Assembly: GCA_028286885.1 (NCBI GenBank)
Contig: JAQBQS010000003.1
Location: forward strand, 44,607 to 108,606
From: Patescibacteria group bacterium
Lineage (GTDB): Bacteria; Patescibacteriota; Minisyncoccia; Phycocordibacterales; UBA1006
Reading direction: 5' to 3'
DNA: 64,000 bases
Shown: positions 1-41,798 of the stretch, one piece after another
Layout: the number at the start of each line of letters is the position of its first letter
How positions within the stretch are numbered: the stretch's first letter is position 1
Position numbers and translations under genes: made by a program
Notes under the pieces: model-generated
What the model was told of the DNA's origin: nothing
Database searches by the model: none
Seen by the model: the letters and a program-made list of their open reading frames with translations, nothing else

Positions 1-20
1 TATACTTGTCGTAACCTTTT

Positions 21-1520
21 ATGCCAACTTCCGAAAGTCTTATCATCCTCCGGGACTTCATCTATCCGCTCCTTGTCGCCACGGCGGCTATTTGGGCTCC
101 GCTTTTGATCGGATCGGTCATCTTGCAGTGGTGGCTCGAATACGTCCGCAAGGAAACTGTTGCCAAGGCGAAGTGGACGATGCTCGAAATCAAGATCCCG
201 AAAGAAGTTATGAAAAGCCCGGCAGCGCTCGAGCTCGTACTGACGAGCATGCATGCCGAGACGAAGCCGCCTCTCTTTACGCCGAACGTTCCGACGAAGT
301 GGACGAAGCTCGCAAGCGAGTTTGGAAAATTTTACGCGGCGCTGTGGCTCGGGGCATGGCCACTATGGTGGTCGCTTGAGATCGCTTCGATTGAAGGGAA
401 TATCTATTTCTTCGCACGTGTAGAACCTAAAAATAGACTTGCTGTTGAGAACTTGTTCTACTCGCAGTTTCCTCAGGCGGAAATTACGGAAACAGATGAC
501 TACACAAAATATGTTCCTCCGTTCAAAGCCGGCAACGGCTGGGATTTGCGCGGATGCGAATACAAACTGAAAGAAACGTTCGATGGAGACAAGAAAGAAG
601 CCGGCGACAAGAAGCTCAAGATGCCCGTGGACGCGCTGCCGATCAAGACATATATCGAATACGGATTAAATGATGCGTTCAACTTAGAGGAAGAGCAAAA
701 GATTGATCCACTCGTGTCGCTTTTGCAAGTCATGGGAGCGCTTGGCCAAGGTGAGCAGGCGTGGGTTCAGATTGTAATCCAAGGCTCGTGGGCGAGGTTC
801 GAGAATCCGAATTTGGAAAAGCGAGGTGAAAAGCCGTTTGTTTTCTGGCAGGATGTTGGAAAATATTACATCGACGATGTCATCTTGAAACCGTGGAGAG
901 GATTCATCATCAAGCCAGTGCCGGCAAAAGCGGAGAAGAAAGATAAACTTTCTGGTGAAGTAACCCAAGAGGCCCAGGATGAAGTCAAAGGCGTCCAAGA
1001 CACCGGATTCAAAAACGTTCCCGAGCGCGAGAAAGGAAAGCTCGAATCGACCGAGCGCAACATGCAGAAGCCCGGATACGACACGGGTATTCGCATCGTG
1101 TATCTGGGATACGGAGCTTCGTTCAAAGTTGGACGATTGGGCGAACTCAAAGGCGCATTCAAGCAGTTCAACGCAGCGAACCTGAATTCATTTGAGGTAA
1201 CCAACGGAACCGACGACGGATTTGATTTTCCTTGGCAGGATTACAAAGATCTGCGCAAGCTCAATAATCGCGAAAAAATGTTCAAGCGATACGTTAAACG
1301 AGAATTCTTCTATCCGCCAGAAATGGGCGCGACGCTCGCTTTGAAAAAGGTCATTGACGCGCCGCTTGTCAAAGGAACCCTCAAGCCGCCTGAAATTTCA
1401 GTTTTGACAACCGAGGAGCTCGCGACCATTTTCCATTTCCCGGGAACCGTCGCAAGGACGTCGGGACTCACGCGTGTCGAGGCGCAAAAAGCCGAGCCGC
1501 CTTCAAATCTCCCTATTTAA
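21..1520 (+). CDS. hypothetical membrane-anchored protein (single N-terminal TM helix, large soluble domain)
   Basis: 499-aa ORF with an N-terminal hydrophobic helix (IYPLLVATAAIWAPLLIGSVILQWW). No family recognised by eye. Confidence 0.5.
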   Translation: MPTSESLIILRDFIYPLLVATAAIWAPLLIGSVILQWWLEYVRKETVAKAKWTMLEIKIPKEVMKSPAALELVLTSMHAETKPPLFTPNVPTKWTKLASEFGKFYAALWLGAWPLWWSLEIASIEGNIYFFARVEPKNRLAVENLFYSQFPQAEITETDDYTKYVPPFKAGNGWDLRGCEYKLKETFDGDKKEAGDKKLKMPVDALPIKTYIEYGLNDAFNLEEEQKIDPLVSLLQVMGALGQGEQAWVQIVIQGSWARFENPNLEKRGEKPFVFWQDVGKYYIDDVILKPWRGFIIKPVPAKAEKKDKLSGEVTQEAQDEVKGVQDTGFKNVPEREKGKLESTERNMQKPGYDTGIRIVYLGYGASFKVGRLGELKGAFKQFNAANLNSFEVTNGTDDGFDFPWQDYKDLRKLNNREKMFKRYVKREFFYPPEMGATLALKKVIDAPLVKGTLKPPEISVLTTEELATIFHFPGTVARTSGLTRVEAQKAEPPSNLPI

Positions 1521-1524
1521 TTTC

Positions 1525-2547
1525 ATGGAAGTTCCTGATATTACAAATTACGAAGGTTCGGCTCCTCCCCCTGCTAAGGGGGAGGCTGGGAGGGGGTTTG
1601 AAAATACAAACCCCCTCCTAACCCTCCCCTTAGCAGGTGAGGGAACAGGACAGCCGAAATCGCGCAAACGCAGGTTTGCGTTTTTTGGCTTAGTCGCGGG
1701 ACTTGCCGCCATTGTCGTTATTTCGTTCGGAATCGCCGGACGTCCTCCCTCTGACTTTGTTCCCGAAACGGTGGTTGTTATTCCCGGCAATGCATCTACA
1801 AAATCAGCCGGCGACATTCTCGTTAAAAATCACATCATCAGGTCGAGCAGCATCTTCCAGGCCATCATCCAAACGATCCTCGGCGATCGCCCCGTCATCG
1901 CCGGACAGTTCCAGTTTGACAAACCGGTCAGCGTCCTGAAAGCCGCGCAAATCGTTACGGGCGGATCATTCGGACGTACGCAGATCAAGCTTACAATTCC
2001 CGAAGGTTCAAGCAATGCCGACATTTCAAAAATCGTTCTCAAGCAGATTCCGGATTTCAATGAGAAAACATTTCTCAAGAATTCAGGACCATTCCAAGGA
2101 AACTTGTTCCCTGAGACGTATTTAGTTTTCAAAACCATTACTCCTGACGAATTGATTGCACGAATGCGGCAGGAATTCGACAAGAAAATTTCAGCGCTCA
2201 AGTCTGATATTTCGGCATCGAGACATGATCAAGAAGACCTCGTAAATATGGCTGCCATCTTGGAGAAAGAAGCCAAGAATTCAAGTGACGCTGCGCGCAT
2301 CGCGGGAATTCTGTGGCACCGCATTGCAATCGGAATGCCGCTTCAAGTAGATGCCGCGCCTGTAACATACAAGGAAAAAGGATTTCCGAAAGTGCCGATC
2401 GGCAATCCCGGCGTTGCGATGATCAATGCGGCGATTCATCCCGTTTCATCCGACTATTTGTATTATCTGTACGACAAGAAAGGCGTGATCCATTATGCCA
2501 AGACGTACGCGGGGCATCAGGCGAACATCGAAAAATATCTGAGGTAA
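1525..2547 (+). CDS. mltG: endolytic murein transglycosylase, MltG/YceG family
   Basis: N-terminal TM (FAFFGLVAGLAAIVVISFGIAG) plus the C-terminal YceG-like signature LQVDAAPVTY...PIGNPGVAMINAAIHP. ATG at 1525 chosen; the ORF opens at 1474 but that would overlap the upstream gene. Confidence 0.7.
   Translation: MEVPDITNYEGSAPPPAKGEAGRGFENTNPLLTLPLAGEGTGQPKSRKRRFAFFGLVAGLAAIVVISFGIAGRPPSDFVPETVVVIPGNASTKSAGDILVKNHIIRSSSIFQAIIQTILGDRPVIAGQFQFDKPVSVLKAAQIVTGGSFGRTQIKLTIPEGSSNADISKIVLKQIPDFNEKTFLKNSGPFQGNLFPETYLVFKTITPDELIARMRQEFDKKISALKSDISASRHDQEDLVNMAAILEKEAKNSSDAARIAGILWHRIAIGMPLQVDAAPVTYKEKGFPKVPIGNPGVAMINAAIHPVSSDYLYYLYDKKGVIHYAKTYAGHQANIEKYLR
1556..1641. repeat. GC-rich nested palindromic element (~86 bp) lying in-frame inside the mltG N-terminal coding region
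   Basis: CCTCCCCCTGCTAAGGGGGAGGCTGGGAGGGGGTTT-(loop)-AAACCCCCTCCTAACCCTCCCCTTAGCAGGTGAGGG. The arms are near-perfect reverse complements and far more GC-rich than the flanks. The terminal CCTCACC resembles the DUF559-element termini. Confidence 0.6.
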
Positions 2548-2594
2548 TCCTCGGATTTTTTGTTTTAAAAATTCCGTGCTACGATGTCATCCAT

Positions 2595-3134
2595 ATGAAG
2601 GAAAAGAAACTCGCGTTTATCGACCTCGAAACGACCGGATTTGATCCGTTGACGCAGGAAGTCATCGAGATCGGCTGCCTCTTCGCAAAATTAAACGAGA
2701 ATGGAATTTACGAGGAGCTCGACTCATTCGAGCTCAAGGTGAAGCCGGAACACATTGAAACAGCGGACCGCGAGGCGCTCCGCATCAACCGCTACAGCGA
2801 CGAGGACTGGTTGTTTGCTCACACCCAGAAGGAAGCCTTCACAATGCTCGCGCAGAAATGCGAAGGATGCGTTCTGGTTGCGCAAAACACGCCGTTTGAC
2901 TACGGATTTCTGCAGGCCGGATTCTCGCGAAACGGCCTAAAAGATCCGTTCTTCTTTGCAAAGCTCGATACCATCTCGCTCGCATATTTACGATTTAGGA
3001 AGGATCCCGAGATGAACAACTTTTCGCTCAAGGCGCTTTGCGAGAGATACGGAATCAAGAATGAGAAAGCGCACAGCGCGCTCGCTGACATCCGCGTTAC
3101 GTTTGAGGTGTTCAAGAAATTGATGGGGCAGTAA
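2595..3134 (+). CDS. DEDDh 3'-5' exonuclease (DnaQ / DNA polymerase III epsilon-like)
   Basis: Exo I motif FIDLETTG and Exo III motif HSALADIRVTFEVF. ATG at 2595; the upstream part of the 2313 ORF overlaps mltG. Confidence 0.75.
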   Translation: MKEKKLAFIDLETTGFDPLTQEVIEIGCLFAKLNENGIYEELDSFELKVKPEHIETADREALRINRYSDEDWLFAHTQKEAFTMLAQKCEGCVLVAQNTPFDYGFLQAGFSRNGLKDPFFFAKLDTISLAYLRFRKDPEMNNFSLKALCERYGIKNEKAHSALADIRVTFEVFKKLMGQ

Positions 3135-3178
3135 GGCTCCTTTTTTTCTTGCCAAAAGTATGATAGTGTTGCCGCATG
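3134..3178 (+). promoter_or_regulatory. terminator T-run + TTCTTGCCAAAA + TATGATAGT (-10-like) + 8 nt + ATG promoter-like motif
   Basis: ctttttttcttgccaaaagtatgatagtgttgccgcATG. One of at least 6 similar instances in the window. Confidence 0.45.
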
Positions 3179-4252
3179 TTTTCATGGTTTTTGAAGAAAA
3201 ATAAAATAGGAAAAGGAAAGAAAGCCTTCGTCGGAGTTTCCGGCGGCGTCGATTCGTCCGTGTCGGCGGCGCTCTTGATCGAGCAGGGATACGACGTTGT
3301 CGGTGTTTTCATCAGGACATGGCAGCCCGATTGGATCCCGTGCACTTGGAAGGACGAGCGGCGAGATGCAATGCGCGTATGCGCTCACTTGAACATTCCG
3401 TTTGTTGAACTTGATTTGGAACAAGAATACAAGAAAGGCGTTGCCGACTATATGATCGCTGAATATAAATCAGGCCGTACGCCGAATCCCGATGTCATGT
3501 GCAACCGTGAGGTAAAGTTCGGAGGATTTTTGAACTGGGCGCTCGAGCATGGAGCAGATCATGTCGCGACAGGTCACTATGCAAGAAACGATGGTCAATT
3601 GATGAAGGGAGTTGATCCGTCAAAAGACCAGTCCTATTTTTTGTGGATGCTCACAAAAGAGCAGCTTTCAAAAATTCTGTTTCCCATCGGCCATCTTGAA
3701 AAATCAGATGTGCGAAAACTTGCTGAAAAATTCAAGTTGCCCACAGCGACCAAAAAAGATTCACAAGGGATCTGCTTCATCGGTGAAATCGATATGAAGG
3801 AATTCTTGAGACATTATATTGACATAAATCCCGGAGATGTTTTGAATATCGACGGAGAAAAAATAGGAACGCACGATGGTTCATTGTTTTACACTCTCGG
3901 AGAAAGGCACGGTTTCGTCATTTCTAAAAAAACGACGCGCGACATGCCGTACTATGTCGTCGAAAAAAATATCGACAAGAATACGATTACCGTATCTCAG
4001 GACCCCGCAAGCTTTGAGAATTCGACTGATGTTATCTTGCGTGATTGCGTATGGCGAGAAAAAATAATTTCCGATAAAAAATACGATGCCCAAATCCGCT
4101 ATCACGGGCATTTAAAGCCAGGTATTCTTGTTCAAGGAGTACAAGGGGAATGGATCGTACATTTTGATGAGTCAGATTTCTCGCTTTCACCGGGACAATC
4201 GGTTGTCGTGTATGACGGCGATGTTTGCGTCGGCGGGGGAATCGTGAAATAA
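3176..4252 (+). CDS. mnmA: tRNA-specific 2-thiouridylase MnmA
   Basis: PP-loop SGGVDSS plus conserved MnmA blocks (IRTWQPDW..., NPDVMCN..., FLNWALEHGADHVATGHYAR). Confidence 0.85.
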   Translation: MFSWFLKKNKIGKGKKAFVGVSGGVDSSVSAALLIEQGYDVVGVFIRTWQPDWIPCTWKDERRDAMRVCAHLNIPFVELDLEQEYKKGVADYMIAEYKSGRTPNPDVMCNREVKFGGFLNWALEHGADHVATGHYARNDGQLMKGVDPSKDQSYFLWMLTKEQLSKILFPIGHLEKSDVRKLAEKFKLPTATKKDSQGICFIGEIDMKEFLRHYIDINPGDVLNIDGEKIGTHDGSLFYTLGERHGFVISKKTTRDMPYYVVEKNIDKNTITVSQDPASFENSTDVILRDCVWREKIISDKKYDAQIRYHGHLKPGILVQGVQGEWIVHFDESDFSLSPGQSVVVYDGDVCVGGGIVK

Positions 4253-4262
4253 TGCAAGAATC

Positions 4263-5333
4263 ATGCGGTTTTTTCGCGCCTTTGCAAAGACTTCTTTTGT
4301 CATTCTTGCTCTCATCGGGCTTGCCTTCGTAGGCGTGTTTGTCAGCATGCAATTCGGCTGGACGAACGTGCGCGGAACGATTGCCGAAAGGAATAATTCC
4401 TTCTTTAAGAATATTCCCAAAACTGCTTCGGCAAACAGCAATTCAAGCCAGGCAGTGATTTTGTGCAAGGTTCACGCGCTTGCGAACTTTGCCCCGCAGA
4501 CAGCGCAAAATATCGAGAATGCTTACCAGCAAACTAACGATGGCAGTCTCGCGTCTGCGATGTTTTCCGTCGCAGCGCTTCGTTTCGCGGGGACGTCGCT
4601 CCAATCAAATTTTGACATGTGCGCTACGGCAACCGTGCCGGATTTGACTCCTGTAACCCAGACGGCGTACGCATGGGCGGATTCTGCCGAGTGGGGAGTC
4701 ATGAAGTCCGCATTTGTCCGCGATCAGGATACGATCAATCGCGCGGCGCGCGATGCCGGCATCTCGCCGCGATTGCTTCTCGGAGGAATTATCGGCGAAC
4801 AGTTCCGTTTCTTCACGAGCGAGCGCGATTCGTTCAAGCAGTATTTCGAGCCGTTGAAAGTCCTCGCGTCTCTTTCGAAATTTTCATACGGAATTGCGGG
4901 ACTGAAGCCTGAAACGGCGCAGCTCATCGAAGACCACTTGCATGATTCGACCTCGGTATTTTATTTAGGGTCGGAAATGGAAAATGTCATTGCGTATCCG
5001 GACGGCTCTGATCATGACACGGTTCGATTCGACCGAATCACCGATACCAAGAATACCTACTATTCATATTTGTACGCAGGGCTTTTCATGCGCGAAGTTA
5101 CGAACCAATGGAAGGCGGCGGGGTACGATATTGCCGAGCGTCCCGATGCGCTCTCGACACTCTACAATCTCGGATTCAATCGCTCGATTCCGAAGCCCGA
5201 TCCGGCGGCGGGAGGAGCGCCGATTACGGTCAACGGACAACTTTATAATTTCGGCGACTTGGGGTACCAGTTCTATTATTCAGGGGAATTGATTCAAGAA
5301 TTTCCCTATGTTTCGAGTTCGCCTTCTCAATAA
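4263..5333 (+). CDS. hypothetical membrane-anchored/secreted protein
   Basis: 356-aa ORF with an N-terminal hydrophobic segment (FVILALIGLAFVGVFVSM). No recognisable family. Confidence 0.5.
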   Translation: MRFFRAFAKTSFVILALIGLAFVGVFVSMQFGWTNVRGTIAERNNSFFKNIPKTASANSNSSQAVILCKVHALANFAPQTAQNIENAYQQTNDGSLASAMFSVAALRFAGTSLQSNFDMCATATVPDLTPVTQTAYAWADSAEWGVMKSAFVRDQDTINRAARDAGISPRLLLGGIIGEQFRFFTSERDSFKQYFEPLKVLASLSKFSYGIAGLKPETAQLIEDHLHDSTSVFYLGSEMENVIAYPDGSDHDTVRFDRITDTKNTYYSYLYAGLFMREVTNQWKAAGYDIAERPDALSTLYNLGFNRSIPKPDPAAGGAPITVNGQLYNFGDLGYQFYYSGELIQEFPYVSSSPSQ

Positions 5334-39194: not shown

Positions 39195-39241
39195 CCGTCA
39201 GAATTATTTAGAGCAGGTCGAGAGACTTGCTTTTTTATTAC

Positions 39242-39734
39242 CTCACCCGTCTCGCTTCGCGAGCCACCCTCTCCTCTGCGAGGAGAGGGACGAACTTTAG
39301 ATTTTCTTTAAATATGGTTGTTAAAATTCCATTCATGGGAATTATCAATGGAATTCAAAATAAAGAAAAAAGAAGATTTCTTCGCAAAAACCAAACACTT
39401 GAGGAAGAATTTGTTTGGAGAAACCTACGAGGGAACAAAATGGGAATGAAATGGCGACGGCAAGTAAGTATTGGTCAGTATGTCGCAGATTTTTACTGCA
39501 CGGCAAGAAAGCTTGTTTTAGAGATCGATGGCGACCAACATCTTGCTGAGAGTGCTAGAGGATATGATGAAATTAGGACTCATTTTTTCGAAATAAATGG
39601 AATTAAAGTAATTCGGATTTCTAATAAAGAACTTAATAGCGACCCTCAGATTCTTTATCAGAAGATAAAAGATTTCGAACGCTGACCCTCTCCTCGCAGA
39701 GGAGAGGGTGGTTTGCGCAGCAAACCGGGTGAGG
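39242..39734. mobile_element. MITE-like element: DUF559 endonuclease gene flanked by ~55-bp GC-rich nested-palindrome terminal inverted repeats
   Basis: Left IR 39242..39296 CCTCACCCGTCTCGCTTCGCGAGCCACCCTCTCCTCTGCGAGGAGAGGGACGAAC. Right IR 39677..39734 GAACGCTGACCCTCTCCTCGCAGAGGAGAGGGTGGTTTGCGCAGCAAACCGGGTGAGG. The arms are reverse complements, and each contains the internal palindrome CCCTCTCCTCTGCGAGGAGAGGG. Host terminators flank both ends. Confidence 0.6.
39314..39685 (+). CDS. DUF559 (Vsr-like endonuclease fold) domain protein
   Basis: FVWRNLRGNKMGMKWRRQVSIGQYVADFYCTARKLVLEIDGDQH...IKVIRISNKEL matches the DUF559 core. The stop codon lies inside the right IR. Confidence 0.65.
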   Translation: MVVKIPFMGIINGIQNKEKRRFLRKNQTLEEEFVWRNLRGNKMGMKWRRQVSIGQYVADFYCTARKLVLEIDGDQHLAESARGYDEIRTHFFEINGIKVIRISNKELNSDPQILYQKIKDFER

Positions 39735-39742
39735 TTTGTAAA

Positions 39743-40389: not shown

Positions 40390-41304
40390 ATGCACATTCC
40401 CGTACTGTTTAATGAATCAATAGAAGCTCTTTCAATAAAAAAAGACGGGACATACGTTGACGGGACGCTCGGAGGGGCAGGGCATGCCTGTGAAATTGCC
40501 AGGCATTTGGGGCCAGATGGAACGTTGATTGGTTTCGATCTGGATTCGAATGCAATAGCTCGCGCCAAGGAAAAACTTACCCCCTCCGCGATACGCTCCG
40601 GCGGGTCAGGGCAGATGTGCAAAGTCATTCTTGTTCAAGAAAACTTCAGGAATCTCGATAAAGTTCTTGAAGAACATGATATCCAAGAAGTTGAGGGAAT
40701 ATTTCTTGATTTGGGATGGTCGTCATTTCAGATTGCCGACGCGAGCAGGGGGCTATCTTTCCAAGAAGACGGGCCTCTGAAAATGACATTGAAGGACAAT
40801 CCGGGCGAGGACGATGTGACGGCTTATGACATCGTGAACTCATGGGACGAGAAAACGATCGCGGATACGATCTACACCTACGGCGACGAGCGCGCATCGC
40901 GCAGAATTGCCAAGGCAATCGTGGATTGGCGCCGCAAAAAGCCGATTATCACGACGTTCGACTTAGTTTCCGTCATCGAATCGGTAATGCCAAGAAAGCC
41001 TTGGATGAAAACCAATCCGGCAACGAAAACGTTTCAGGCCCTTCGCATCGCAACGAATGATGAATACGGGGCGCTCGGCGAAACGCTTGAGAAAGGATTC
41101 GAAAGGCTCAAGCAAAGCGGGCGATTCGCGATCATTTCATTCCACTCGGGCGAGGATCGCATTGTCAAAAATTTCTTCCGCGACAAGGCGCATGCCGATC
41201 TTGCAACCTTGATTACGAAAAAACCAATCACGCCAAGCGAAGCGGAACTCGCAGTCAATCCGCGTGCCCGAAGTTCGAAGCTGCGCATCTTAGAAAAAAT
41301 ATGA
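40390..41304 (+). CDS. rsmH: 16S rRNA (cytosine1402-N4)-methyltransferase RsmH
   Basis: HIPVLFNESIEAL...YVDGTLGGAGHA...GFDLD is the RsmH/MraW signature. Confidence 0.9.
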   Translation: MHIPVLFNESIEALSIKKDGTYVDGTLGGAGHACEIARHLGPDGTLIGFDLDSNAIARAKEKLTPSAIRSGGSGQMCKVILVQENFRNLDKVLEEHDIQEVEGIFLDLGWSSFQIADASRGLSFQEDGPLKMTLKDNPGEDDVTAYDIVNSWDEKTIADTIYTYGDERASRRIAKAIVDWRRKKPIITTFDLVSVIESVMPRKPWMKTNPATKTFQALRIATNDEYGALGETLEKGFERLKQSGRFAIISFHSGEDRIVKNFFRDKAHADLATLITKKPITPSEAELAVNPRARSSKLRILEKI

Positions 41305-41609: not shown

Positions 41610-41617
41610 ATATTTCA

Positions 41618-41775
41618 TACCCCCTCGCCTCGCAGAGCCTCGGCATTCCCCCTAGAAGGGGGAGACAGTTCTGCTGGATTATTTTTTAAAATCTTTTTTT
41701 CAGCTAAATCACAACTTCCAGTTATGCGAAGCTGTCCTCCCCTTATAGGGGAGGTGCCCGTAGGGCGGAGGGGTA
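41618..41775. repeat. cargo-less GC-rich nested-palindrome element (related to the DUF559 element)
   Basis: Left TACCCCCTCGCCTCGCAGAGCCTCGGCATTCCCCCTAGAAGGGGGAGACAG. Right CTGTCCTCCCCTTATAGGGGAGGTGCCCGTAGGGCGGAGGGGTA. The arms are inverted repeats separated by a 63-bp AT-rich spacer, filling the ftsL-ftsI intergenic region. Confidence 0.55.
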
Positions 41776-41798
41776 TTGGTATGTTAAAATAACACCCA

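Follow-up and report, generated by a model that had tools for sequence, protein, structure and literature searches.

A compact inverted pair of BoxC-type repeats lies in frame within the mltG gene of an uncultured Patescibacteria bacterium

Background

Why should a long, GC-rich palindrome lie within the protein-coding sequence of mltG? The question is raised by a 64-kb window (the whole stretch of DNA analysed here) from the metagenome-assembled genome (MAG) of an uncultured Patescibacteria group bacterium, in which the gene for the YceG-family endolytic transglycosylase MltG carries an inverted repeat close to its 5' end. The first-pass annotation of this DNA placed the repeat inside the mltG open reading frame (ORF), which a repeat search and RNA folding have borne out, and proposed that it represents either a tolerated insertion of a MITE (a miniature transposable element with inverted repeats), or a terminator or attenuator of the upstream gene preceding an mltG start located elsewhere. 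Neither of these explanations is retained here. On the basis of its sequence layout, the stretch between positions 1564 and 1643 is instead identified as a compact inverted pair of the GC-rich repeats named BoxC, PIT or TM. The explanation favoured below, to which we attach a probability of about 0.75, is that this pair is a selfish structural DNA repeat which is tolerated, and probably translated, in the disordered cytoplasmic tail of MltG. The repeat family itself has already been named; what is new is an intragenic, in-frame and compact BoxC/TM pair in the Patescibacteria.

The E. coli K-12 genome contains twenty-three copies of the TM_ECO form of this repeat, for example CCCTCTCCC-TTGA-GGGAGAGGG-TTA-GGGTGAGGG (Holder et al. 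2015, PMC4666352). As single-stranded DNA, TM_ECO folds into an intrastrand triplex in vitro, as determined by circular dichroism and nuclear magnetic resonance for TM_ECO only, while purine-motif triplexes do not form in RNA; the TM motif occurs in more than 260 genomes and has been linked to local genomic instability (PMC4666352). The same sequence has also been characterised as a G-quadruplex/hairpin switch (Kaplan et al. 2016, PMC5100583). Both studies treat the motif as intergenic, and a nuclease features in neither.

Results and discussion

Anatomy and identity of the palindrome

The repeat search delimited inverted arms at 1547-1600 and 1607-1660, which are 74 % complementary and separated by 6 nt, while a GC-rich core (1564-1600 and 1607-1643) in which 30 of 37 positions are complementary could be read by eye. 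When folded as RNA, positions 1546-1655 form one long hairpin of -67.1 kcal/mol (shuffle mean -41.3; z = -6.9), a stability reached by none of 200 shuffled sequences. The loop comprises 6 nt (AAAATA, 1601-1606) rather than the nine first given, and the element begins 35 nt past the upstream stop codon (1518-1520) and 31 nt past the ATG at 1525, where a distance of 30 nt from the stop had been noted. Outside the repeat, TTCGGCT (1556-1562) is complementary to AGCCGAA (1651-1657). No exact or near-exact second copy of the arm occurs in the window at three or fewer mismatches, where only family-level relatives were found.

Each arm of the palindrome consists of a small pyrimidine/purine hairpin and an adjacent mirror-repeat arm (1589-1596 and 1611-1618; Table 1). 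The resulting order, in which a pyrimidine arm and a purine arm enclose a loop and are followed, after a short linker, by a third arm mirroring the purine arm, is the module layout of the BoxC/PIT/TM repeats, including TM_ECO and HPGQ, which share the three-arm design, a 3-nt linker (TTA, CTG or CCG) and G/C-rich stems of 8-9 nt, and which are multi-copy, occur in many phyla and are frequently arranged as inverted ('palindromic') pairs. Base pairing and mirror symmetry (G·G, A·A and T·A triads) are complete in the upstream module and partly decayed in the downstream one (Table 1), and the E. coli TM_ECO control scored 9/9 for both the hairpin and the mirror. The downstream purine arm, GGTGAGGG, bears a single G>T change relative to the GGGGAGGG of related genomes.

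Modules of this type are widespread. The motif AACCCTCCCCT-N3-4-AGGKGAGGG was found in at least 120 metagenome stretches on contigs with a GC content of 0.39-0.71, and repeats of the family occupy three loci in the window. Among the metagenome matches listed, the consensus ACCCCATCCCCACCCYAA-CCCTCCCCTTGAAGGGGAGGG is nearly invariant, and the upstream module of mltG is near-identical to individual copies, e.g. CCTCCCCTTTCAAGGGGGAGGCTGGGAGGGGGA in stretch L182. An inverted upstream partner accompanies 19 of 114 copies among these matches, with the same inside-out architecture as in mltG. The canonical pair comprises CCTCCCCCTTCAAGGGGGAGG, YYR and GGAGGGGGATGGGGT, a non-palindromic spacer of 17-54 nt, and ACCCCATCCCCACCC, YAA and CCCTCCCCTTGAAGGGGAGGG, and carries the same arm asymmetry as the window pair, with CCTCCCCC and CCCTCCCC on opposite sides. 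Relative to the canonical pairs, the window pair has shorter third arms, and its 14-nt spacer is unusually short. A covariance model (R1), built from 90 metagenome modules only, matched the downstream module at 1602-1645 on the plus strand (31.8 bits, E 6.3e-7) and the upstream module at 1562-1605 on the minus strand (17.9 bits, E 0.0035). These are the only full-length matches in the window, the other significant match (41736-41754; 19.9 bits, E 0.001) being restricted to the hairpin portion. The motif was also observed, rarely, in viral or proviral contigs of IMG/VR (12 stretches, L215-L226), and viral carriage is a possible route for transfer between phyla.

In comparison with the E. coli copies, those in mltG differ in their stems (CCCTCCCC and CCTCCCCC, against CCCTCTCCC), in the short third arms and 14-nt spacer of the pair, and in their host, a reduced-genome member of the Patescibacteria known from a MAG. 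They further differ in being intragenic and in frame, whereas the E. coli copies are described as extragenic; this location is descriptive of the E. coli copies and is not a structural property of the repeat.

Table 1 Coordinates of the mltG palindrome, its component parts and related repeat loci (positions in the 64-kb window unless a relative is named)
Feature	Position	Strand	Description
mltG coding sequence (YceG-family endolytic transglycosylase)	1525..2547	+	Pfam PF02618, E 2.2e-48
Predicted MltG N-terminal peptide			MEVPDITNYEGSAPPPAK
MltG membrane helix	~residues 50-73		FAFFGLVAGLAAIVVISFGIAG; KSRKRR just before
Lineage-specific gain	1543..1611	+	69 nt / 23 codons, TNYEGSAPPPAKGEAGRGFENTN; boundaries alignment-dependent, +/- few nt
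Upstream module, purine-strand orientation	1564..1596	+	hairpin 8/8; mirror triads 8/8, linker CTG
Upstream module, pyrimidine arm	1564-1571		CCTCCCCC
Upstream module, loop	1572-1577		TGCTAA
Upstream module, purine arm	1578-1585		GGGGGAGG
Upstream module, linker	1586-1588		CTG
Upstream module, mirror third arm	1589-1596		GGAGGGGG
Spacer / apical loop	1597..1610		TTTG-AAAATA-CAAA; 14 nt, partly palindromic
Downstream module, purine strand on minus	1611..1643	-	hairpin 7/8; mirror 6/8, linker TTA; partly decayed
Downstream module, third arm	1611-1618		CCCCCTCC; complement of upstream third arm
Downstream module, linker	1619-1621		TAA (TTA on purine strand)
Downstream module, pyrimidine arm	1622-1629		CCCTCCCC
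Downstream module, loop	1630-1635		TTAGCA
Downstream module, purine arm	1636-1643		GGTGAGGG
Terminator-like hairpin	1662..1690	+	GCGCAAAC-GCAG-GTTTGCGT, then TTTTTGG; first-listed terminator-like site in 1-4500
DUF559 left flanking repeat	39240..39291	+	third arm ACCTCACCC, linker hairpin TCTCGC-TTCG-CGAG, mini hairpin CCCTCTCC-TCTGCGA-GGAGAGGG
DUF559 gene (Vsr-fold PD-(D/E)XK endonuclease-like)	39335..39685	+	Pfam PF04480, E 7e-26; PDB 3HRL, E 3.5e-13
DUF559 right flanking repeat	39686..39735	+	hairpin 8/8, mirror 8/8; closely resembles TM_ECO; CCCTCTCC-TCGCAGA-GGAGAGGG, TGG, linker hairpin TTTGC-GCA-GCAAA, CC, mirror arm GGGTGAGG(T)
Gene-less repeat pair, spacer between ftsL-like and PBP (penicillin-binding protein) genes	41617..41776		160 bp; module 41617-41663, 72-nt AT-rich middle, inverted module 41736-41776
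mnmA with module insertions, L001	4643-5803
mnmA with module insertions, L004	4580-5722
mnmA with module insertions, L008	1636-2445

Coding status of the repeat-bearing segment

The palindrome lies wholly inside an ORF that extends from 1474, or from the ATG at 1525, to 2547. A 340-aa NCBI protein from a Patescibacteria group MAG is 100 % identical to the predicted product and begins at the same ATG, which follows the TAA stop codon of the upstream gene by 4 nt. The start context ATG GAA RTT, 3-4 nt past the upstream stop, is common to the window and six relatives, and the small gap suggests translational coupling between the two genes. The position of the upstream gene (21-1520; 499 aa) directly before mltG is kept in all relatives examined; no match to it was found in the Pfam search.

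MltG has an N-terminal membrane anchor followed by an extracytoplasmic YceG domain, and its topology can be read from the positive-inside rule. On these grounds the repeat-encoded segment, which precedes the membrane helix, is the cytoplasmic tail of the protein. The peptide quoted in the first-pass annotation, GSAPPPAKGEAGRGFENTNPLLTLPLAGEG, is correct, is read in frame ahead of the helix and introduces no stop codon, and we infer that the repeat pair is translated as a Pro/Gly/Ala-rich low-complexity stretch which MltG tolerates.

The suggestion that mltG starts further downstream, with the palindrome being untranslated and serving the upstream gene as terminator or attenuator, draws on the position of a GC-rich hairpin just past the upstream stop, on a Shine-Dalgarno sequence that is not obvious before the ATG at 1525, and on the terminator-like hairpin with its T-run at 1662-1690. 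Against this, no in-frame ATG, GTG or TTG occurs between the palindrome (from 1643) and the membrane helix, the next candidate being a GTG near 1771, past the helix. The ATG GAA RTT context is conserved in the six relatives, and the frame is kept through several indels in the N-terminal tail, all of them multiples of three. The frame of mltG is also the sole plus-strand frame that is free of stops through the element, with two or three stops in each of the other frames, so that the open frame is non-trivial. A downstream start is thus very improbable. The palindrome was likewise rejected as an intrinsic terminator, its stem leading into AACAGGACAGCC and not into a T-run, and it is absent from the sites listed by the terminator scan. 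An 89-aa ORF on the opposite strand (1548-1817; …GRVRRGFVFSNPLPASPLAGGGAEPS) runs through the palindrome and is most likely spurious, created by the stop-free repeat. Such spurious ORFs are a typical source of 'hypothetical protein' calls.

A fold-back chimera arising by amplification or mis-assembly in the MAG was also considered, since inverted duplications can come from either and the exact protein is found on one contig only. The arms are, however, only ~81 % complementary and show the structured differences typical of the family, the reading frame is preserved, and the neighbouring genes stand in the same order as in relatives, all of which make an artefact barely credible.

History of the modules in mltG

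The five closest MltG proteins (61-77 % identity) share the gene order of an unknown 500-aa gene, mltG, an RNase T-like gene and mnmA, and, at the same codons, each of their mltG genes carries just one module, which is positionally orthologous to the window's downstream module. The module reads CCTCTCCCCAA-CCCTCCCCT-GCA-AGGGGAGGG in L001 and L004, where it encodes the peptide PLPNPPLQGEG. L008 carries it in the same codons and frame, two compensatory swaps mark the variant found in L006 (CCTCCCCCT-AAT-AGGGGGAGG), and the copy in L005 has decayed. No module was found in more distant MltG genes (e.g. L010, 54 %). The 69 nt that distinguish the window from the five relatives and from more distant ones are made up of the upstream module and the spacer together with 21 nt that do not belong to the repeat. 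Comparison of MltG N-termini, as advised in the first-pass annotation, therefore separates the two halves of the palindrome, the downstream half being present in five relatives and the upstream 23 codons specific to the window lineage.

The alignment shows a single module to be ancestral, upstream of which an inverted partner and spacer were gained in the window lineage. A whole pair inserted in the ancestor of the clade, with loss of the upstream half by the relatives, would accord with the widespread canonical pairs that have exactly this arm asymmetry, and the spacer between the ftsL-like and PBP genes shows the same contrast of one module in a relative and two in the window. This history is nevertheless unlikely, as it needs at least two to three independent deletions with the same boundary (in L001, in L004/L006/L008 and in the L005 lineage), so that parsimony favours one gain. 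Moreover, it is the upstream module that is intact and the downstream one that has decayed, which fits a younger upstream copy.

Similarity among the modules does not follow that among the genes that carry them. The 36-nt modules of L001 and L004 are 100 % identical, although the gene bodies share 64 % identity (46 % at the third positions of conserved residues). By contrast, the gene bodies of L004 and L006 share 83 % identity, yet 9 of their 36 module positions differ, with two compensatory pairs among these differences. This disagreement with the gene tree suggests that modules turn over by replacement or gene conversion from other copies. It also bears on the condition under which a genuine coding sequence had been envisaged, namely protein-level conservation with synonymous-site variation: the downstream half is indeed present in orthologues (PLPNPPLQGEG), but its variation keeps the hairpin, is not biased towards synonymous sites and is incongruent with the gene tree, and therefore points to a DNA repeat rather than to protein-level constraint.

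The same observations could be read as the marks of a selected regulatory RNA that affects mltG translation, coupling to the upstream gene or mRNA stability, possibly together with the hairpin at 1662-1690. Consistent with this are the very stable fold, the hairpin at the same codons in five relatives with its two compensatory swaps between L004 and L006, the identity of the module in L001 and L004, and the conserved terminator-like hairpin downstream. Yet the module recurs at unrelated sites (the mnmA coding sequence and intergenic positions) and on contigs of widely varying GC content, and is absent from the mltG of more distant relatives. Both stem variants are standard in the family, such that the swaps can result from copy replacement. 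The conserved mirror third arm is a feature of DNA triplexes, and PIT elements in E. coli had shown neither promoter nor terminator activity in earlier work (PMC4666352). At gathering thresholds, Rfam searches of the whole window detected two tRNAs only, and at permissive thresholds the region 1450-1750 matched generic eukaryotic miRNA-precursor hairpins on both strands, all far below threshold. In the mRNA the hairpin would start 37 nt past the AUG, outside the initiation footprint; initiation should therefore not be blocked, and at most elongation would be slowed. A regulatory function thus appears quite unlikely.

The hairpin at 1662-1690 falls within mltG where the membrane helix begins, 19 nt past the repeat pair, and has the GC-rich stem (1662-1681) and T-run of an intrinsic terminator. 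In relatives a hairpin and T-run occur at the same codons with other sequences and amino acids (RKRRFAFF, RKNFLAFF and RKNILALL), while L010 carries ATCCCG-11 nt-CGGGAT plus GGTTTTTTG at this site. It could represent an intragenic attenuator, or could also be a side effect of the encoded residues, given that Lys codons (AAR) are the reverse complement of Phe/Leu codons (YTT).

Further modules in the window and in relatives

The search for other genomic copies that the first-pass annotation called for recovered family-level modules at two further window loci and in the mnmA genes of relatives. Five pyrimidine/purine hairpins of the mltG type were counted in the window, against 0.03 expected from Markov shuffles, and these fall in three loci: mltG, the flanks of a DUF559 gene and a gene-less element at 41617-41776. 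The latter lies in the spacer between the ftsL-like and PBP genes, which in the closest relative, L213, contains the left module only (4154-4200). Pairing-up of modules may thus have been recurrent in the window lineage, having affected both mltG and this spacer.

Two in-frame module insertions are found in the mnmA of relatives (Table 1), after codon ~10 (HPLTPSNRGG) and in mid-gene (VRIPPLRRGGGIRAAND), neither of which is present in the window mnmA (3176-4252). The mnmA modules are read in another frame than the mltG copy, yielding HPLTPSNRGG as opposed to PLPNPPLQGEG, and the peptide is therefore a by-product of the DNA repeat. This weighs against the proposal that a Pro/Gly-rich linker was selected for MltG function, for which the presence of the downstream half in five orthologues might be cited: the same DNA specifies a different peptide in mnmA, the repeat consensus determining which residues are encoded, most MltG proteins lack the segment, and variation keeps base pairing and not residues. 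Selection for such a linker is highly improbable.

Two other sites may be recorded here. In L001, a further module is located in the spacer between mltG and the RNase T-like gene (3967-3987). In the window, rsmH contains a GC-rich in-frame insertion of nine codons (40591-40617; IRSGGSGQM), which is absent in nearly all of 120 listed RsmH relatives, the window protein being 304 aa long and most of the listed relatives 295 aa. The insertion is preceded by ACCCCCTCC, the motif also seen in the mltG third arm, and may be a decayed module.

Association of the repeats with DUF559 nuclease genes

The one gene-carrying repeat unit in the window encodes a DUF559 protein, likely starting at MGIINGI according to the homologue alignment, for which 3HRL is the closest solved structure. 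Its flanking copies (Table 1) are almost TM_ECO in sequence. A match between the CAGGTGAGGG end of the mltG palindrome and the CCTCACC terminus of this unit had been noted previously. The relation holds at the level of the repeat family, but this particular match is superficial, as GGTGAGGG of mltG is a purine arm and GGGTGAGG of the DUF559 unit a mirror third arm. Furthermore, the mirror arms are innermost in the mltG pair and outermost in the DUF559 unit; given this opposite polarity and the different repeat subtype, the mltG pair is not derived from the DUF559 unit by simple internal deletion. Upstream of mraZ, the window and L213 (1780-2300) alike carry the DUF559 gene between structured inverted flanks. 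Between the window and L213 the mini hairpin is identical, while the linker hairpin differs yet remains paired (TTTGC-GCA-GCAAA and CTCGCC-GCA-GGCGAG).

Through homologue alignment, 80 DUF559 loci were fetched from GTDB species genomes, 79 of which were counted. These cover the Patescibacteria, Cloacimonadota, Gamma- and Alphaproteobacteria, Acidobacteriota, Planctomycetota, Bacteroidota, Bacillota and Chloroflexota, among others. GC-rich inverted repeats of the same layout flank the DUF559 gene in most of them. Perfect pyrimidine/purine hairpins occur within 260 nt of the gene on the upstream side in 58/79 loci, on the downstream side in 58/79 and on both sides in 46/79, and their density falls from 2.93 per kb close to the gene to 0.09 per kb at distances above 400 nt. 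Conversely, a DUF559 ORF abuts the module in 4 of 120 metagenome module loci among the matches listed. In E. coli K-12, ycjD, annotated as DUF559, adjoins TM_ECO #9 in the fabI-ycjD spacer. No paper linking DUF559 or ycjD to BoxC, to inverted repeats or to mobile elements was found in the literature searched.

The surroundings of ycjD (L212, NC_000913.3 1350300-1351800) show further structure. The gene ends in a decayed mini hairpin (CCCTCTCCCTGAAAGAGCGAGGGGG), past which come a ~50-nt duplication of the ycjD 3' end and TM_ECO #9, in that order, and a perfect palindrome (CACCTCATTCTGACAAAAGATTAAATCTTGTCAGAATGAGGTG) is found on its 5' side.

By analogy with REPIN-RAYT, and with a different enzyme, we tentatively propose that the BoxC/TM repeats may be the cis-elements of a selfish system driven by a DUF559 (Vsr-fold) nuclease. 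The fold group to which Vsr and DUF559 belong includes the homing endonuclease I-Bth0305I (PMC3424549), an example of how the same nuclease fold can drive selfish spread through DNA cleavage and repair. While I-Bth0305I is intron-encoded, the DUF559 genes considered here are free-standing and flanked by structured repeats.

Comparison with other repeat systems

Three known systems resemble the mltG element in part. The Rickettsia palindromic elements (RPE), reportedly described by Ogata et al. in 2000, are likewise palindromic insertions in frame within coding sequences, as found here in mltG and in the mnmA of relatives, which are translated as an extra peptide and differ in presence between related genomes. 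Compared by description (RPE are mentioned in PMC1779305), they represent a different, AT-richer family of ~100-150 bp that is confined to Rickettsia and is without a triplex-type mirror arm and an associated nuclease gene.

The REPIN-RAYT system is said to go back to Bertels and Rainey in 2011. Elements of the REP/BIME/REPIN type (PMC3479197, PMC3733652) are similarly GC-rich hairpin repeats that occur as singlets and as inverted doublets forming a long hairpin, with a small nuclease-type gene flanked by inverted copies and most copies being gene-less. They differ in that the gene here encodes a DUF559 Vsr-fold PD-(D/E)XK protein, while RAYT is a Y1 HUH transposase. The module copies, moreover, have no consistent GTAG/CGTC head, the tag by which REPs are recognised (PMC3733652), and REPs are species-specific and extragenic, whereas the BoxC-type consensus is shared across phyla.

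Finally, MITEs such as Correia and Nezha (reviewed in PMC10969869) are small, non-coding and multi-copy, have inverted ends and occasionally occur in frame within genes. The mltG element was rejected as a MITE in the strict sense, a reading that had been suggested for it, because no target-site duplication was seen, the sole gene-carrying unit encodes DUF559 and no known transposase, and the polarity of the mltG pair is reversed, i.e. inside-out, relative to that unit.

A proposed origin and the evidence that weighs against it

The comparison with relatives shows that a single module entered the tail-coding region of mltG in the common ancestor of a small clade of Patescibacteria, and that an inverted partner and spacer (69 nt, or 23 codons) were added upstream in the window lineage. 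The partner could have arisen by recombination or template switching with another copy, possibly initiated by DUF559. In the favoured explanation, the element would act at the DNA level, its uniformity being maintained through recombination with other copies and not through service to mltG, and the segment would be tolerated as the MltG tail is unconstrained. In the more tentative extension of this explanation, the DUF559 Vsr-fold nuclease, with inverted modules on either side of its genes, would drive spread or maintenance. Its target would be the hairpin/triplex module; once cleaved, a site would be repaired from another copy, and in this way modules would spread, form pairs and become homogenised, including those inside genes where the frame stays open.

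Several observations weigh against this explanation. The translation of the segment and the N-terminus of MltG are inferred from the sequence of an uncultured organism. The copy number is low, with three loci in 64 kb, and no target-site duplication or other insertion scar was seen, the boundaries of the 69-nt gain, of the DUF559 unit and of the 41.6-kb element showing no direct repeat. The perfect conservation of the module between L001 and L004 could reflect a function at the mltG site. As to the upstream half, the pairing of TTCGGCT with AGCCGAA, for which we estimate a chance probability of ~0.01, hints at a local fold-back copy, while the arm asymmetry favours acquisition of a canonical partner. 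The role of DUF559 is a correlation only. Furthermore, the DUF559 flanks in this genome are of the CCCTCTCC subtype and are not detected by the CCCTCCCC-based model; because of this subtype difference, the gene-flanking and dispersed copies in this genome lack the identity that is characteristic of REP/RAYT systems.

Conclusions

BoxC-type repeats, known as extragenic elements in E. coli, sit in frame and are apparently translated in mltG and mnmA, two core genes of bacteria with very small genomes. There they contribute low-complexity peptide additions and presence/absence differences between close relatives, and in annotation such Pro/Gly-rich stretches and antisense ORFs are to be regarded as repeat-derived. 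A nuclease-driven system, if true, would explain the conservation of the repeat across phyla, the instability at TM sites in E. coli and the conversions from single modules to pairs in mltG and in the spacer between the ftsL-like and PBP genes. As the association between the repeat and DUF559 extends across phyla and includes ycjD, the nature of BoxC/TM and the role of DUF559 are jointly testable in E. coli.

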